This document shows positions 1-6,376 of a DNA stretch of 6,376 bases, one piece after another; positions within the stretch are counted from its first letter, which is position 1; each line of letters begins with the position of its first letter. The position numbers and the translations under genes are program-made. Under the pieces are notes generated by a model, which saw nothing but the letters and a program-made list of their open reading frames with translations, did no database searches and was not told the DNA's origin. The stretch is from a virus (lineage: Duplodnaviria; Heunggongvirae; Uroviricota; Caudoviricetes): IMG/VR virus record IMGVR_UViG_2700989365_000005. One strand, written 5' to 3'.

Positions 1-1
1 C

Positions 2-46
2 TGGCGCACTGACGGTTTCATCGTGGGTGTCGGTTATAAATTCTGA
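2..46 (+). CDS. lom: 3' end of upstream gene (start outside window); C-terminus of a Lom/Ail/OmpX-family outer-membrane beta-barrel protein
   Basis: Frame starting at base 2 reads WRTDGFIVGVGYKF followed by TGA at 44-46. A ...GVGYKF C-terminus ending in Phe is typical of Ail/Lom/OmpX beta-barrels, and lom lies directly upstream of stf in phage lambda (gene order recalled, not searched). The call rests on 14 residues only. Confidence 0.5.
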   Translation, partial: WRTDGFIVGVGYKF

Positions 47-73
47 TTAGCCAGGTAACACAGTGTTATGACA

Positions 74-99
74 GCCCGCCGGTTCAGGCGGGCTTTTTT
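74..99 (+). terminator. Rho-independent terminator downstream of lom (stem GCCCGCC / GGCGGGC, loop GGTTCA, then TTTTTT)
   Basis: Perfect 7-bp GC-rich inverted repeat 74-80 / 87-93 with a 6-nt loop, followed directly by a T6 tract at 94-99; it sits 28 nt after the TGA stop. Confidence 0.75.
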
Positions 100-101
100 G
101 T

Positions 102-107
102 GGGGTG
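102..107 (+). promoter_or_regulatory. Shine-Dalgarno-like GGGGTG upstream of the stf ATG (identical copies at 1182-1187 and 2296-2301)
   Basis: Purine-rich GGGGTG ends 3 nt before ATG 111 (GGGG core about 5 nt upstream). Spacing is short, so this is only a plausible RBS. Confidence 0.4.
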
Positions 108-110
108 AAT

Positions 111-1117
111 ATGGCAGTAAAGATTTCAGGTGTACTGAAAGACGGCACAGGAAAACCGGTACAGAACTGCACAATCCAGCTGAAAGCAAAACGTAACAGC
201 ACCACGGTGGTGGTGAACACGCTGGCCTCAGAAAATCCGGATGAAGCCGGGCGTTACAGCATGGACGTTGAGTACGGTCAGTACAGCGTTATTCTGTTGG
301 TGGAAGGATTCCCGCCGTCACATGCCGGGACCATCACCGTGTATGAAGATTCCCGACCCGGTACGCTGAATGATTTTCTCGGTGCCATGACGGAGGATGA
401 TGCCCGTCCGGAGGCACTGCGCCGTTTTGAGCTGATGGTGGAAGAGGTGGCGCGTAACGCGTCCGCGGTGGCACAGAACACGGCAGCCGCGAAGAAATCA
501 GCCAGCGATGCCAGCACATCAGCCCGTGAGGCGGCAACCCATGCGACTGATGCTGCAGGCTCAGCGCGTGCAGCCAGCACGTCAGCCGGACAGGCCGCGA
601 CTTCGGCTCAGGAGGCGTCTTCCAGCGCAGGAACGGCATCAACAAAGGCCACTGAAGCATCAAAAAGTGCTGCCGCTGCAGAGTCCTCAAAAAGCGCGGC
701 GGCTACCAGTGCCGGTGCGGCGAAAACGTTAGAAACGAATGCGGCAGCGTCACAACAATCAGCAGCCACTTCTGCATCCACCGCGACCACGAAAGCGTCA
801 GAAGCTGCCACCTCAGCCCGGGATGCGTCGGCTTCAAAAGAGGCGGCAAAATCATCAGAAACGAACGCATCATCAAGCGCCAGTAGCGCAGCTTCCTCGG
901 CGACGGCGGCTGCAAATTCTGCGAAGGCGGCCAAAACGTCCGAGACGAACGCCAGGTCTTCTGAAACGGCAGCGGGACAGAGTGCCTCAGCTGCGGCAGG
1001 CTCAAAAACAGCGGCTGCGTCGTCTGCCAGCGCCGCGTCAACAAGTGCCGGGCAGGCCTCAGCCAGTGCCACCGCCGCCGGAAAATCGGCAGAAAGCGCC
1101 GCATCATCCGCTTCAAC
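111..1117 (+). CDS. stf: Side tail fibre protein, 5' fragment (copy A); N-terminal domain plus Ala/Ser/Thr-rich shaft, truncated at an N-gap
   Basis: ATG at 111 gives [60 protein letters not shown]..., which I recognise as the N-terminus of lambda Stf (memory, no search). The ORF track starts at GTG 105, but ATG 111 matches the known N-terminus. The frame meets NNN at 1118-1120 and then reads through duplicated intergenic sequence to TAG 1128-1130, so this is not a complete gene. Confidence 0.8.
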
Positions 1118-1120
1118 NNN
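1118..1120. other. Run of 3 N (unknown bases) at the junction between stf copy A and the second copy of the lom-stf intergenic module
   Basis: Literal nnn in the sequence. The sequence before it aligns to 3309-3311 of copy C, and the sequence after it (ttctgattag...) is the lom stop and intergenic region again. Confidence 0.95.
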
Positions 1121-1153
1121 TTCTGATTAGCCAGGTAACACAGTGTTATGACA

Positions 1154-1179
1154 GCCCGCCGGTTCAGGCGGGCTTTTTT
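1154..1179 (+). terminator. Second copy of the lom-stf intrinsic terminator
   Basis: Identical sequence to 74-99, offset by 1080 nt. Confidence 0.7.
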
Positions 1180-1190
1180 GTGGGGTGAAT

Positions 1191-2183
1191 ATGGCAGTAA
1201 AGATTTCAGGTGTACTGAAAGACGGCACAGGAAAACCGGTACAGAACTGCACAATCCAGCTGAAAGCAAAACGTAACAGCACCACGGTGGTGGTGAACAC
1301 GCTGGCCTCAGAAAATCCGGATGAAGCCGGGCGTTACAGCATGGACGTTGAGTACGGTCAGTACAGCGTTATTCTGTTGGTGGAAGGATTCCCGCCGTCA
1401 CATGCCGGGACCATCACTGTGTATGAAGATTCCCGACCCGGTACGCTGAATGATTTTCTCGGTGCCATGACGGAGGATGATGCCCGTCCGGAGGCTCTGC
1501 GCCGTTTTGAACTGATGGTGGAAGAGGTGGCGCGTAACGCGTCCGCGGTGGCACAGAACACGGCAGCCGCGAAGAAGTCAGCCAGTGATGCCGGCACATC
1601 TGCCCGTGAGGCGGCAACCCATGCGACTGATGCTGCAGGCTCAGCGCGTGCAGCCAGCACGTCAGCCGGACAGGCCGCGACTTCGGCTCAGGAGGCGTCT
1701 TCCAGCGCAGGAACGGCATCAACAAAGGCCACTGAAGCATCAAAAAGTGCTGCCGCTGCAGAGTCCTCAAAAAGCGCGGCGGCCACCAGTGCCGGTGCGG
1801 CGAAAACGTCAGAAACGAATGCTGCAGCGTCACAAAAATCAGCAGCCACTTCTGCATCCACTGCGACAACGAAAGCGTCAGAAGCCGCCACTTCAGCCAG
1901 AGATGCGGCGGCCTCCAAAGAGGCGGCAAAATCATCAGAAACGAACGCCTCCACAAGCGCCAGCAGTGCAGCCTCCTCGGCAACGGCGGCAGGAAATTCC
2001 GTGAAGGCGGCAAAAACGTCCGAGACGAATGCTAAGTCTTCTGAAACGGCAGCGGAACAGAGCGCCTCAGCTGCGGCAGACTCTGAGACAGCAGCTGCAT
2101 CATCGGCCCGTGAGGCGTCCATTAAGGCAGAGGAGGCAGCAGTCAGTGCCACCGCCGCCGGAAAATCGGCAGAAAGCGCCGCA
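1191..2183 (+). CDS. stf: Side tail fibre protein, 5' fragment (copy B, diverged allele), truncated at a 21-N gap
   Basis: ATG 1191 with the same SD and N-terminus [12 protein letters not shown].... It is collinear with copy A but carries scattered substitutions (e.g. 1495 t vs 415 a; 1511 a vs 431 g) and a strongly diverged 3' part (about 2040-2150 vs 960-1070; protein ...AEQSASAAADSETAAASSAREASIKAEEAAVSA vs ...[33 protein letters not shown]). The frame runs into the N-run at 2184. Confidence 0.8.
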
Positions 2184-2204
2184 NNNNNNNNNNNNNNNNN
2201 NNNN
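2184..2204. other. Run of 21 N at the junction between stf copy B and the third copy of the lom 3' end
   Basis: Literal N-run, followed at 2205 by gacggtttcatcgtgggtgtcggttataagttctga, the lom C-terminus again. Confidence 0.95.
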
Positions 2205-2240
2205 GACGGTTTCATCGTGGGTGTCGGTTATAAGTTCTGA
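2205..2240 (+). CDS. lom: Second copy of the lom 3' end (last 11 codons DGFIVGVGYKF, stop TGA 2238-2240); fragment only
   Basis: Same peptide as 11-46 but with AAG instead of AAA for Lys (2231-2233 vs 38-40), so it is a distinct allele of the lom terminus. Confidence 0.5.
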   Translation, partial: DGFIVGVGYKF

Positions 2241-2267
2241 TTAGCCAGGTAACACAGTGTTATGACA

Positions 2268-2293
2268 GCCCGCCGGTTCAGGCGGGCTTTTTT
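2268..2293 (+). terminator. Third copy of the lom-stf intrinsic terminator
   Basis: Identical to 74-99, offset by 2194 nt. Confidence 0.7.
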
Positions 2294-2304
2294 GTGGGGT
2301 GAAT

Positions 2305-4508
2305 ATGGCAGTAAAGATTTCAGGTGTACTGAAAGACGGCACAGGAAAACCGGTACAGAACTGCACAATCCAGCTGAAAGCAAAACGTAACAGCACCACG
2401 GTGGTGGTGAACACGCTGGCCTCAGAAAATCCGGATGAAGCCGGGCGTTACAGCATGGACGTTGAGTACGGTCAGTACAGCGTTATTCTGTTGGTGGAAG
2501 GATTCCCGCCGTCACATGCCGGGACCATCACCGTGTATGAAGATTCCCGACCCGGTACGCTGAATGATTTTCTCGGTGCCATGACGGAGGATGATGCCCG
2601 TCCGGAGGCACTGCGCCGTTTTGAGCTGATGGTGGAAGAGGTGGCGCGTAACGCGTCCGCGGTGGCACAGAACACGGCAGCCGCGAAGAAATCAGCCAGC
2701 GATGCCAGCACATCAGCCCGTGAGGCGGCAACCCATGCGACTGATGCTGCAGATTCAGCACGTGCAGCCAGCACGTCAGCCGGACAGGCCGCTTCGTCGG
2801 CTCAGTCAGCGTCTTCCAGCGCAGGAACGGCATCAACAAAGGCCACTGAAGCCTCAAAAAGTGCTGCCGCTGCAGAGTCCTCAAAAAGCGCGGCGGCTAC
2901 CAGTGCCGGTGCGGCGAAAACGTTAGAAACGAATGCGGCAGCGTCACAACAATCAGCAGCCACTTCTGCATCCACCGCGACCACGAAAGCGTCAGAAGCT
3001 GCCACCTCAGCCCGGGATGCGTCGGCTTCAAAAGAGGCGGCAAAATCATCAGAAACGAACGCATCATCAAGCGCCAGTAGCGCAGCTTCCTCGGCGACGG
3101 CGGCTGCAAATTCTGCGAAGGCGGCCAAAACGTCCGAGACGAACGCCAGGTCTTCTGAAACGGCAGCGGGACAGAGTGCCTCAGCTGCGGCAGGCTCAAA
3201 AACAGCGGCTGCGTCGTCTGCCAGCGCCGCGTCAACAAGTGCCGGGCAGGCCTCAGCCAGTGCCACCGCCGCCGGAAAATCGGCAGAAAGCGCCGCATCA
3301 TCCGCTTCAACAGCCACAACGAAGGCTGGCGAAGCCACTGAGCAGGCCACGGCAGCAGCGAGGTCAGCTTCCGCAGCGAAGACATCCGAAACGAACGCGA
3401 AAGCGTCGGAAACCAGCGCAGAATCCTCAAAAACGGCTGCCGCATCGTCCGCCAGTTCGGCGGCGTCATCGGCATCATCGGCGTCTGCTTCAAAAGATGA
3501 GGCGACCAGACAGGCGTCAGCAGCGAAGGGCAGCGCCACGACGGCATCCACGAAGGCGACAGAGGCTGCTGGTAGTGCGACGGCAGCAGCTCAGAGCAAA
3601 AGTACGGCGGAATCTGCAGCAACGCGCGCTGAGACAGCGGCAAAACGGGCAGAGGATATTGCATCCGCCGTGGCGCTTGAGGATGCGAGCACGACGAAAA
3701 AGGGGATAGTACAGCTCAGTAGTGCGACTAACAGCACTTCCGAGTCACTGGCGGCAACACCAAAAGCCGTTAAGGCCGCGTATGACCTGGCTAACGGGAA
3801 ATACACCGCACAGGATGCAACGACAGCACAGAAAGGGATAATCCAGCTAAGCAGCGCGACCAACAGCACGTCTGAAACGCTGGCGGCAACGCCAAAGGCA
3901 GTAAAAGCAGCCAATGACAATGCTGAGAAACGTCTGCAGAAAGATCAGAACGGTGCGGATATCCCTGGCAAAGACACCTTTACGAAAAATATTGGTGCCT
4001 GCCGTGCCTTCGGTGGGTCAGTAAGCACAACAACAGGAAACTGGACGACTGCACAGTTTATCGAGTGGCTGGATTCTCAGGGAGCATTTAACCATCCATA
4101 CTGGATGTGCAAGGGTTCCTGGTCTTATGGCAATAATAAAATCATTACTGATACTGGCTGCGGTAATATTCATCTCGCCGGAGCTGTCATTGAAGTAATG
4201 GGGATAAAGTCAGCGATGACGATCCGCATTACCACTCCGACCACATCCAGCGGTGGCGGAACAACCAACGCCCAGTTTACCTATATTAATCACGGAACAG
4301 ATTATTCACCTGGCTGGCGAAGGGACTATAACTCCAGAAATAAGCCAACGGCATCAGAGATCGGGGCGCTACCGTCAGGTGGAACAGCAGTATCATCAGT
4401 TAATCTGGCTTCAAAAGGTCGGGTAGCCGCGCTGACAGACAATACGCAGGGGGCAGCAGGTCTTGAGTTATACGAGGTGTATAACAACGGATATCCAACA
4501 GCGTATGG
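2305..4508 (+). CDS. stf: Side tail fibre protein variant (copy C): lambda-Stf-like N-terminus and shaft, two 44-aa fibre repeats, then an alternative C-terminal tip domain; no stop before the junction at 4509
   Basis: ATG 2305 with the same SD and N-terminus. My manual translation finds no in-frame stop to 4508. Because GGN still encodes Gly, the frame formally continues across the N at 4509 into segment D and on to the window end, so a gene caller would report one ORF 2305..>6376. I split it at 4509 because 4510 onward re-duplicates 3367-3923. Confidence 0.75.
3700..3923 (+). repeat. Two tandem 132-nt (44-aa) tail-fibre repeats in copy C ([44 protein letters not shown]; second copy ends at ...[10 protein letters not shown])
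   Basis: Units start at 3700 and 3832, in frame. The [14 protein letters not shown] motif is characteristic of the phage tail-fibre repeat found in lambda Stf and related fibres (recalled). Confidence 0.8.
3924..4508 (+). other. Alternative C-terminal (putative receptor-binding tip) domain of stf copy C; lower GC, Cys-containing, unlike the lambda Stf C-terminus
   Basis: Translation [93 protein letters not shown]...[16 protein letters not shown]. It diverges from segment D immediately after the shared ...[10 protein letters not shown]. It is visibly more AT-rich than the shaft. I do not recognise the family. Confidence 0.55.
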
Positions 4509-4509
4509 N
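4509..4509. other. Single N marking a junction between the alternative tip domain and a re-entry into shaft sequence
   Basis: Literal n. The sequence from 4510 aligns to 3367 onward of copy C with scattered substitutions. Confidence 0.9.
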
Positions 4510-6376
4510 GCTTCCGCAGCGAAGACATCCGAAACGAACGCGAAAGCGTCGGAAACCAGCGCAGAATCCTCAAAAACGGCTGCCGCATCGTCCGCCAGTT
4601 CGGCGGCGTCATCGGCATCATCTGCGTCTGCTTCAAAAGATGAGGCGACCAGACAGGCGTCAGCAGCGAGGGGCAGCGCCACGACGGCATCCACGAAGGC
4701 GACAGAGGCTGCTGGCAGTGCGGCAGCGGCAGCACAGAGCAAAAGTACGGCGGAATCCGCGGCAACGCGCGCCGAGACAGCAGCAAAACGGGCAGAGGAT
4801 ATTGCATCCGCCGTGGCGCTTGAGGATGCGAGCACGACGAAAAAGGGGATAGTACAGCTCAGCAGTGCGACCAACAGCACTTCCGAGTCACAGGCGGCAA
4901 CGCCAAAAGCCGTTAAGGCCGCGTATGACCTGGCTAACGGGAAATACACCGCACAGGATGCAACGACAGCACAGAAAGGGATAGTTCAGCTCAGCAGTGC
5001 GACTAACAGCACTTCCGAGTCACAGGCGGCAACGCCAAAAGCCGTTAAGGCCGCGTATGACCTGGCTAACGGGAAATACACCGCACAGGACGCTACGACA
5101 GCACAAAAAGGAATTGTCCAGCTCAGTAGTGCAACCAACAGCACATCTGAAACGCTTGCTGCGACACCGAAAGCAGTGAAAGCAGCTAATGACAATGCGA
5201 ATGGTCGGGTACCTTCTGCCCGTAAGGTGAATGGTAAGGCGCTTTCAGCGGATATAACACTGACGCCGAAAGATATTGGTACGCTTAACTCAACAACAAT
5301 GTCATTCAGCGGTGGTGCTGGTTGGTTCAAATTAGCAACGGTAACCATGCCACAGGCGAGTTCTGTTGTTTCAATTACGTTGATTGGTGGCGCTGGATTT
5401 AACGTGGGGTCACCTCAACAGGCAGGTATATCTGAACTTGTTTTACGTGCAGGTAATGGTAATCCGAAGGGGATTACTGGTGCTTTATGGCAGCGCACAT
5501 TGACAGGGTTTACAAATTTTGCCTGGGTTAATACATCTGGTGATACTTACGATATTTACGTTGCAATCGGAAATTATGCGACTGGTGTAAATATTCAATG
5601 GGATTATACCAGTAATGCCAGCGTGACGATTCATACGTCACCAGCATATTCTGCTAATAAGCCGGAAGGGTTAACGGACGGTACAGTTTATTCACTCTAT
5701 ACGCCATCAGAGCAGTTTTATCCGCCTGGCGCACCAATCCCGTGGCCATCAGATACCGTTCCGTCTGGTTATGCCCTGATGCAGGGGCAGACTTTTGACA
5801 AATCTGCTTACCCGAAACTTGCAGCCGCTTATCCGTCAGGCGTGATCCCTGATATGCGTGGCTGGACGATTAAGGGCAAACCTGCCAGTGGTCGGGCCGT
5901 ATTGTCTCAGGAACAGGACGGCATTAAATCGCATACCCACAGCGCCAGCGCATCCAGTACGGATTTGGGGACGAAAACCACATCGTCGTTTGATTACGGC
6001 ACTAAATCCACGAATAACACTGGTGCGCATACCCATAGTTTAAGTGGCAGCACGAATGCAGCTGGTAATCACAGCCATAGAGATGGCCGTCGATTTAACC
6101 CCAGTGTTTTTAAAGATACTTATCAATATGGTTATACAAGCTCAGGTCAAAATACCTGGGGTGTACAAGGCTCAGTAGGTATGTCTACGGGGTGGTTAGC
6201 GAATACCAGTATAGATGGTAATCATAGCCATTCACTGTCCGGCACAGCAGCATCTGCAGGTGCACACGCGCATACTGTCGGTATTGGTGCTCATACGCAC
6301 TCCGTTGCGATTGGTTCACATGGACACACCATCACCGTTAACGCTGCTGGTAACGCGGAAAACACCGTCAAAAACA
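4510..6376 (+). CDS. stf: Side tail fibre protein, 3' portion (segment D): shaft, three 44-aa fibre repeats, a central domain and a lambda-Stf-like His-rich C-terminal domain; 3' end outside window
   Basis: Same frame as copy C. The C-terminal part reads [76 protein letters not shown]...[21 protein letters not shown], closely matching my memory of the lambda Stf C-terminus, which ends ...[18 protein letters not shown]. The window therefore stops about 10 codons before the expected stop. Confidence 0.8.
4843..5198 (+). repeat. Three tandem 132-nt (44-aa) tail-fibre repeats in segment D (units at 4843, 4975, 5107; last unit partial)
   Basis: Units 1 and 2 are near-identical (SESQAAT...[19 protein letters not shown]). 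Unit 3 (SETLAAT...AANDNA) corresponds to the second unit of copy C. Segment D therefore has one extra repeat unit relative to copy C. Confidence 0.8.
5932..6327 (+). other. Array of seven His-x-His motifs in the C-terminal domain of stf segment D (SHTHS, AHTHS, NHSHR, NHSHS, AHAHT, AHTHS, SHGHT)
   Basis: Read directly from the translation. HxH motifs coordinate metal ions in the trimeric distal tips of some phage tail fibres, for example T4 gp37 (recalled established knowledge). No structure is known to me for this protein. Confidence 0.6.

Follow-up and report, generated by a model that had tools for sequence, protein, structure and literature searches.

The threefold repeat of a lom-stf segment in the analysed DNA is almost certainly an artefact of scaffolding, in which four contigs of a short-read assembly, derived from two or more lambda-like prophage tail-fibre loci, were chained one after another. 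The window, i.e. the whole stretch of 6376 nt that was analysed, is the entire record CXFV01000248.1 from a Shigella sonnei draft assembly. The lom and side-tail-fibre genes beneath it are of the familiar lambdoid kind, and the finding adds nothing to biology. In all probability, the apparent repeat is not a real genomic structure, and gene annotation based on it is unwarranted. An earlier note on this DNA had warned against annotating the region as three genes without verification, and our analysis leads to the same advice, as the window holds four fragments of ordinary loci joined by nothing except N.

Three runs of N, at 1118-1120 (3 N), 2184-2204 (21 N) and 4509 (1 N), set four pieces apart: S1 (1-1117), S2 (1121-2183), S3 (2205-4508) and S4 (4510-6376). 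The repeated module, composed of the lom 3' end, a terminator and the stf 5' end, is found in S1, S2 and the head of S3, and its copies A, B and C run head-to-tail in direct orientation at 41-1117, 1121-2183 and 2235-3311, their starts being 1080 and 1114 nt apart. The units are bounded differently from copy to copy: the ends of copies A and B correspond exactly to two different points of copy C (1117 to 3311, and 2183 to 3297), and the restarts lie at the equivalents of 41 and 11. Copy B restarts with TTC TGA, the last lom codon and the stop, and copy C does so 36 nt ahead of the lom end (2205-2240, encoding DGFIVGVGYKF and the stop). The coordinates of the three modules and of the N runs, the restarts at or just before the lom stop, and the cutting of stf at different points had all been described correctly in the earlier note. 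Its further claim that each copy closes in an N run holds for copies A (3 N) and B (21 N) and not for copy C, which continues uninterrupted past 3311, up to 4508. After the single N at 4509, S4 resumes further back, at the equivalent of 3367, and from there follows a different stf allele. The non-identity of the copies, the fourth piece S4 and the open frame at two junctions went beyond that description. Tandem Repeats Finder, when applied to the window, reported only a 132-nt fibre repeat in S4 and missed the kilobase units, because the longest period it considers is 500.

All three junctions consist of N only, with zero determined bases across any of them. J1 (1118-1120, 3 N) and J2 (2184-2204, 21 N) are scaffold joins rather than determined sequence, and J3 (4509, a single N) is a scaffold join that reads in frame by chance, GGN coding for Gly. 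An open frame is kept at two of the three junctions, J2 and J3, an outcome with a probability of about 1 in 9 by accident. The same features might be read as a genuine tandem array, in which recombination, unequal or illegitimate, between co-resident prophages left three lom-3'/stf-5' cassettes and a partly duplicated stf, the N standing for unresolved bases. The direct head-to-tail order of the copies, the shortness of the N runs and the open frame at J2 and J3, as a real in-frame fusion would give, are in agreement with such an array. Nevertheless, we regard it as extremely unlikely: no determined base spans a junction, so that no defined novel junction sequence is seen at the unit boundaries, and these boundaries vary both in spacing (1080 and 1114) and in end point (equivalents of 3311 and 3297).

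The pieces themselves are readily recognisable. S1 starts with the 3' end and stop codon of lom, the gene of the Ail/Lom outer-membrane protein (1-46, plus strand, as are all the gene and terminator features given here); this part translates to WRTDGFIVGVGYKF followed by the stop, has A at position 40, and falls under an annotated Ail/Lom CDS in finished genomes. A terminator-like hairpin with a T-run was picked out by pattern matching in copy A (73-100; stem of 8 bp, 7 of them G-C, and a tail rich in T). The hairpin is the same in each copy (AGCCCGCC-GGTTCA-GGCGGGCT, then T6; 73-94, 1153-1174 and 2267-2288), and a search against Rfam returned no family at the gathering threshold. The stf 5' part of copy A occupies 111-1117 and is of the A type (S3-like) save for a B-type (S2-like) patch at 559-659; S1 breaks off within an 84-nt stretch over which alleles A and B do not differ, and includes its first 54 nt. 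In S2 (1121-2183), the last lom codon and stop (1121-1126) are followed by the terminator (1153-1180) and the 5' part of stf allele B (1191-2183), whose N-terminal domain matches PF08400 in Pfam with E = 1.9e-72. S2 starts one base past a polymorphic lom site (equivalent to 40), and at its end includes the first 40 nt of the same 84-nt stretch. S3 (2205-4508) carries the lom 3' end (2205-2240; G at 2234), the terminator (2267-2294) and stf allele A (2305-4508), which encodes the N-terminal domain (PF08400), a shaft rich in Ala and Ser, two repeats of the Phage_fiber_2 type (PF03406) and a portion of a distal domain, and is cut off about 820 nt ahead of the stf stop. S4 (4510-6376) covers stf allele B from its middle towards the 3' end and shows, according to Pfam, three Phage_fiber_2 repeats (PF03406), a Collar domain (PF07484) and a His-rich distal region (PF03335); the piece ends 32 nt short of the stf stop codon, directly downstream of which tfa is located in the contig L119 and in E. 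coli SA186.

The three module copies are identical over the first 297 nt and diverge thereafter. Only 11 of 1107 positions distinguish S1 from S3 (99.0% identity), 10 of the differences being clustered in 559-659, whereas S2 differs from S1 at 60 and from S3 at 70 of 1063 positions (94.4% and 93.4% identity, respectively). Kilobase repeats with 93-99% identity are far beyond chance; on the other hand, copies up to 6.6% apart (11, 60 and 70 sites) are unlike the products of a recent amplification, which argues against an array. The stf genes of alleles A and B are identical over the 297 nt at the 5' end and over the 84 nt equivalent to 3258-3341, and are 1-7% different elsewhere.

Each piece, S1 to S4, aligned in one block and collinearly with ordinary single-copy lom-stf-tfa loci. 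S3 matched in a single ungapped block, with 99.87% identity to the loci L095 and L053, 99.83% to L023, and 98.5% to the finished genomes of E. coli C8 and SE11. S2 was 100% identical over 1063 nt to L119, an independent contig free of N, and 99.6% identical to E. coli S42, and S4 showed 99.7% identity to E. coli SA186 and 99.79% to L119. S2, being 100% identical to its own allele family, belongs to a family other than that of S3. When the window was aligned with a finished genome, 92% of it was covered by only about 3150 bp, six pieces being stacked on one lom-stf locus.

The natural neighbours of the pieces are evident from the same comparison. In L119, S2, a further 69 nt, S4 and a final 32 nt make up one stf gene of 986 aa, followed by tfa. 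Of 27 loci compared that carry the S2-type module, 21 (L119 and 20 others) have the 69-nt spacing between S2 and S4; in the remaining six (gaps of 401 or 534 nt), only the downstream part of S4 was matched, and these gaps are no measure of the spacing. S2 and S4 are therefore contiguous elsewhere and yet are parted by S3 in the window, which is difficult to reconcile with a real array. The 20-mer at the end of S3, used as a positive control, occurred in 105 IMG/VR contigs, where it was followed by AAATATCATT in 105 out of 105 cases and by S4 in none. Phage genomes, in turn, contained one copy each (259 places in 257 records), again contrary to what an array would require.

Synthetic queries spanning J1-J3 gave no contiguous match in 5,426 complete E. 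coli genomes (a panel of E. coli rather than S. sonnei, so that a rearrangement confined to one lineage would escape this comparison), and the few places matched by two pieces of a query had the halves in reverse order, i.e. they lay within one normal locus. The joins in question connect the stf shaft (equivalent to 3290-3311) with TTCTGATTAG or GACGGTTTCATC, and CAGCGTATGG with GCTTCCGCAGCG. Patterns allowing any filler of 0-30 nt, with a matcher that accepts N against N, were absent from IMG/VR for all three junctions, from GTDB genomes for J1 and J3, and from JGI metagenomes for J1 and J2; each junction was scanned in two of these three large contig collections, IMG/VR plus GTDB or JGI. The absence of the junctions from both the finished genomes and the contig collections is a further argument against a tandem array, as is the origin of the record from a pipeline known for such joins. 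That a S. sonnei prophage carries three tandem cassettes and an in-frame stf-stf fusion is thus exceedingly improbable; such an array, if real, would provide a stock of alternative N-termini and shafts for the tail fibre.

CXFV01000248.1 is listed among the assemblies produced by the Sanger pipeline (Velvet, SSPACE, GapFiller), from a single isolate (sample ERS025880) and run ERR042779. The product of the second ORF of the window matched an entry of this record exactly; no such match was obtained for the first ORF. In this pipeline, joins based on read pairs leave gaps of N, which GapFiller then attempts to close; according to its authors, both SSPACE and GapFiller are greedy, and false joins are possible (PMC5320598). 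Other draft-derived IMG/VR contigs behave in a similar way: alignments of L053, L059, L082 and L084 to a finished locus jump backwards at N, and L088 and L092 have N at the alignment break. Among 59 loci with the module, the sole two-copy locus has N junctions.

From these results, a scenario for the origin of the scaffold may be proposed. The genome of the isolate would contain at least two lambdoid prophage lom-stf-tfa loci, one with allele A (S3 type) and another with allele B (S2, 69 nt and S4). The de Bruijn assembler may have split these loci into contigs at or inside the shared identical stretches of 297 nt and 84 nt; SSPACE, using read pairs, would then have set the alternative contigs in series with N gaps between them, and GapFiller would have reduced these to 3, 21 and 1 N, with an outcome that looks like a tandem triplication with an internal restart. 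The N-only junctions, the normal single-copy locus behind each piece, the adjacencies absent elsewhere together with the true neighbours found there (S2 and S4, 69 nt apart), and an N-inserting scaffolder all point to this kind of artefact, which is also what the earlier note had proposed. We infer the exact order of the assembler and scaffolder events, and likewise whether the real loci number two or three.

The earlier note left the choice between several prophage loci and alternative haplotypes; since the source is a single isolate, several loci in one genome are the likelier of the two. The same artefact could also have been built of alleles from two strains in a mixed or contaminated culture. 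Three module alleles in a small scaffold would result from this as well, and nothing specific speaks for it. However, several such loci are routine in finished genomes (median of 2-3 places each, with a maximum of 14-16), the finished genome EC23-1020 carries S3-like and S2-like alleles 1.7 Mb apart, and the source is listed as one S. sonnei isolate, so a strain mixture is very unlikely. A deliberate concatenation of allele sequences with N spacers, such as a reference or pangenome construct, would explain why the pieces restart close to the same landmark. It does not explain the irregular spacers (3, 21 and 1) and the odd starts and ends of the pieces, and is refuted by provenance, the record being an ordinary WGS scaffold of a documented pipeline; we consider its probability negligible.

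Besides being chained together, the contigs seem to be imperfect internally, an observation that the earlier note had missed. The single-nucleotide polymorphism at the lom end is naturally A in loci with the S3-type module (4 of 4) and G in those with the S2-type module (20 of 22). In the window, S3 has G and S1 has A. S3 therefore appears to bear the lom-end variant normal for allele B, and at least one contig appears to be mis-phased. S1 is probably either an A/B chimera or the 5' end of a third locus; its mosaic was not found among 2.9 million IMG/VR contigs or the complete E. coli genomes, and natural stf alleles are themselves highly mosaic. The starts of S2 and S4 lie one base after common polymorphic sites (local frequencies of 2.5% and 7.5%), and the S3 start probably lies at a polymorphic site as well, whereas the ends of S1 and S2 coincide with no site polymorphic in the comparison panel. 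For this reason, an account based on branch points suits the contig starts better than the ends, and as only the starts match polymorphic sites, we do not claim any specific k-mer size.

With regard to known systems, the window resembles the lom-stf-tfa region of phage lambda and lambdoid prophages in the order of lom, hairpin and stf, the order in finished loci being J - lom - stf - tfa. The Pfam set of the lambdoid side tail fibre is present, namely PF08400 (Prophage tail fibre N-terminal), PF03406, PF07484 and PF03335 (His-rich Phage_fiber repeat); the PF08400 N-terminus, the fibre repeats and the Collar/His-rich distal domain are found downstream of an in-frame lom tail. The Lom and side tail fiber genes of Escherichia phages PhiR68_2, PhiR26_1 and mEp460 are 97-98.5% identical to S3. 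Unlike a lambdoid locus, the window consists of four fragments of at least two loci, with neither stf complete: allele A is without about 820 nt at the 3' end, and allele B is without 69 nt internally and 32 nt at the end. False joins by SSPACE and GapFiller, which put alternative versions of a region in series with N gaps as residual length estimates, look the same as the joins in the window. Uncollapsed haplotigs of diploid assemblies are analogous, except that paralogous copies from prophages of a haploid genome here take the place of haplotypes and that the contigs, by appearance, are also mis-phased internally.

Programmed tail-fibre switching by inversion or by a diversity-generating retroelement (DGR) was considered as well and rejected. 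The G/C/P invertible segments (Gin/Cin/Pin) and DGRs are similar to the window only in having alternative versions of a part of a tail-fibre gene. These systems vary the C-terminal receptor-binding part and rely on inverted repeats with a recombinase, or on a reverse transcriptase, whereas the window repeats the N-terminal part, in direct copies with N at the junctions; neither inverted repeats of at least 30 nt nor a recombinase or reverse transcriptase gene were detected within it.

The case bears on data hygiene. A large share of bacterial drafts in GenBank comes from the same pipeline (PMC5320598). In studies of tail-fibre diversity, host-range prediction or prophage counting that draw on such drafts, scaffolds should be broken wherever N runs occur in the lom, stf and J regions. 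The public record CXFV01000248.1 already holds three artefactual gene calls: a truncated Stf of 339 aa, a Stf-X7-Lom-tail fusion of 349 aa, and a chimeric product, 1357 aa or longer, that contains an internal duplication.

The window consists of four pieces of lambdoid prophage lom-stf sequence separated by runs of N: S1 (1-1117), S2 (1121-2183), S3 (2205-4508) and S4 (4510-6376), with the junctions J1 (3 N, 1118-1120), J2 (21 N, 2184-2204) and J3 (a single N at 4509) between them. One module is present in three copies, namely S1, S2 and the 1.1 kb at the head of S3, and the coordinates and correspondences that the earlier note had assigned to this triplication turned out to be exact. Each copy combines the terminal codons and stop of the outer-membrane protein gene lom (...DGFIVGVGYKF*), a G+C-rich hairpin (73-94, 1153-1174 and 2267-2288) followed by a T-run, and the start of the side tail fibre gene stf (ATG at 111, 1191 and 2305). 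The identity of the stf protein was confirmed by its Pfam matches: PF08400 (Prophage tail fibre N-terminal) at E ~1e-72, two Phage_fiber_2 repeats in S3 and three in S4, and additionally a Collar domain and a His-rich Phage_fiber repeat in S4. Downstream of J3 the sequence restarts at the equivalent of 3367 and continues as a different allele with a different distal part.

When the window was compared with 5,426 complete E. coli genomes, 92% of it was covered on only ~3150 bp of genome, the matches forming a stack of six pieces on a single lom-stf locus with the gene order J - lom - stf - tfa (tail fibre assembly). Taken separately, all four pieces aligned in a single block, the best identities among these genomes being 98.5% over 2304 nt for S3 (C8, SE11), 99.7% for S4 (SA186 and many others), 99.6% for S2 (S42 and others) and 98.6% for S1. 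Such loci occupy a median of 2-3 places per genome, with a maximum of 14-16, and in the finished genome EC23-1020 an S3-like and an S2-like allele lie 1.7 Mb apart. In phage genomes the locus is single-copy (259 places in 257 records).

The true neighbours of the pieces could be read from other loci. In both SA186 and S42, 69 nt separate the S2 end from the S4 start within a single stf gene, and the same spacing was found in 21 of the 27 compared loci with an S2-type module; the remaining six matched just a downstream part of S4, so that the spacing was not measurable there. The complete arrangement is present in an N-free IMG/VR contig (L119) as S2 (100% over 1063 nt), the 69-nt bridge, S4 (99.79% over 1867 nt) and 32 further bases to the stop codon, which together make one 986-aa stf, followed by tfa. 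The whole of S3 matches N-free stretches of three other loci (L095, L053 and L023) with 99.83-99.87% identity. Consequently, in the window one allele (A, represented by S3) is inserted between the two halves of another (B, comprising S2, the 69 nt and S4), and S1 is an additional 5' module beside them.

The junctions themselves were searched for with 240-nt queries taking 120 nt from each side of the N run. None of J1-J3 gave a contiguous match in any of the 5,426 complete E. coli genomes. The few places with at least 80% query cover were two pieces several hundred bases apart, in which the right half always lay upstream of the left half in the local alignment, that is, in the normal order within one locus. 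These two-piece matches are explained by decayed loci in finished E. coli genomes: in AMSCJX03 (L004) stf is truncated, and in G1/2 (L005) an IS21-family element lies within lom and an internal part of stf is deleted. Exact junction patterns, in which the spacer was any three bases for J1 or 0-30 bases for J2 and J3 and N was allowed to match N, had zero matches in IMG/VR (J1-J3), GTDB species genomes (J1, J3) and JGI metagenomes (J1, J2). As a positive control, the 20-mer that ends S3 was found in 105 IMG/VR contigs; it was followed by AAATATCATTCACC... in all 105 and by the start of S4 in none. For a genuine tandem array in this isolate, three separate illegitimate joins would be needed, each at another position and each lacking determined sequence, and the resulting structure would have no counterpart elsewhere; we regard such an array as extremely improbable.

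The exact product of the open reading frame 1191-2240 was found on one record, ncbi:GCA_001247925.1:CXFV01000248.1, which is also 6376 nt long; hence the window is the entire record. The series CXFV01000001-CXFV01000377 belongs to Shigella sonnei (study ERP000568, sample ERS025880, run ERR042779; Page et al. 2016, PMC5320598, supplementary table) and is one of 9,404 assemblies from the Sanger pipeline, in which Velvet contigs are scaffolded with SSPACE and the gaps then subjected to 120 GapFiller iterations (PMC5320598). According to the same paper, contigs joined by read pairs are left with N gaps, and both tools work greedily and may join contigs falsely. Such a SSPACE/GapFiller procedure accounts for residual N runs of irregular length at every junction. 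Prophage repeats and tail genes of this bacterial group are generally unresolvable by short reads (PMC6602927). The suspicion of an assembly artefact in the earlier note is thus supported by N-only junctions absent from the collections searched, by the adjacency of S2 and S4 and by the scaffolding pipeline. We conclude with high confidence that scaffolding, applied to ordinary lambdoid prophage genes, created both the triplication and the fourth restart as an artefact, and that the contigs are probably chimeric as well; the genes underneath are of the ordinary kind and hold no novelty.

One probable chimera is S1. This piece differs from S3 at 11 of 1107 nt, ten of the mismatches falling within 559-659 and one at position 40, and from S2 at 60 of 1063 nt, while S2 and S3 differ at 70 of 1063 nt; over 41-337, the first 297 nt, all three copies are identical. 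Of the 70 informative sites, S1 shares the S3 base at all but a clean block of ten (559-659), where it has the base of S2. The S1 56-mer at 515-570 was present in none of 2.9 million IMG/VR contigs, compared with 35 for an S2-specific 49-mer, and among 140 fetched loci its equivalent was of the S2 type in 26, of the S3 type in six and of the S1 type in none. No complete E. coli genome reached 99% identity to S1 over 490-740. Since this mosaic was not found elsewhere, S1 is probably a chimera produced by greedy extension across two alleles. Natural stf alleles are highly mosaic, however, and S1 may instead be a private third allele.

In independent contigs, the S3-type module was preceded by ...TATAAA in 4/4 loci and the S2-type module by ...TATAAG in 20/22. 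In the window, S3 carries G at this lom-end site (2234) and S1 carries A (40), S2 being without a lom end. The swap suggests a phase switch or mis-phasing across the 297-nt identical stretch; as clonality of the four S3-type contigs is possible, the linkage is taken as suggestive only.

The breakpoints of the pieces partly fit an assembly origin. Two stretches do not differ between alleles A and B, namely 41-337 and the 84 nt equivalent to 3258-3341; S2 stops 40 nt into the second of these and S1 54 nt into it. S2 starts one base past position 40, the sole polymorphic site at the lom end, and S4 one base past the common polymorphic site 3366, the frequency of such sites among local columns of the locus panel being 2.5% and 7.5%, respectively. 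The starts thus look like contigs cut at assembly-graph branch points, which is in part our inference; the ends of S1 and S2 do not lie at panel-polymorphic sites, and the argument is therefore not pressed further.

Single N's were also seen in seven draft-derived IMG/VR contigs among the fetched controls. At the N, the alignment to a finished locus steps back in L053, L059, L082 and L084 and is interrupted in L088 and L092; in L028 the N lies within a continuous alignment. The breaks of the first six are in the J/lom/stf region, the N's of L053 being at 7274 and 10455 and those of L082 at 3411 and 6838. The minus strand of L082 carries a 1171-nt lom-end/stf-5' module, then N, then lom again; of 59 loci with the 300-nt module, only this one has two copies, with the N junction (6838) between them. 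The first six of these UViGs are likely to be mis-scaffolded as well.

Naive gene calling on the window gives open reading frames at 111-1130 (339 aa), at 1191-2240 (349 aa with seven X, running in frame across the 21 N to the lom tail) and from 2305 to beyond 6376 (a chimera of at least 1357 aa whose frame stays open at GGN, 4507-4509). The same three are called as genes in a public gene collection, so the error has propagated into protein collections, and users should be warned that public collections already contain artefactual Stf proteins derived from this scaffold and others like it.

As for the alleles themselves, the 132-nt (44-aa) Phage_fiber_2 unit (3680-3923 and 4823-5198) occurs twice in A and three times in B, which is ordinary variation in the number of shaft repeats. 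The distal part of A (3960-4508, ...GYPTAYG) has no Pfam match, yet is common in E. coli prophages; in E. coli C8 a macro-domain pseudogene, tfa and an invertase-like gene of the recombinase family come after the S3-type stf. The distal part of B (5930-6330) contains a His-x-His run (SHTHS, AHTHS, NHSHR, NHSHS, AHAHT, AHTHS, SHGHT) with a weak match to PF03335, which presumably resembles the metal-binding tips of T4 gp37 / lambda Stf-type fibres.
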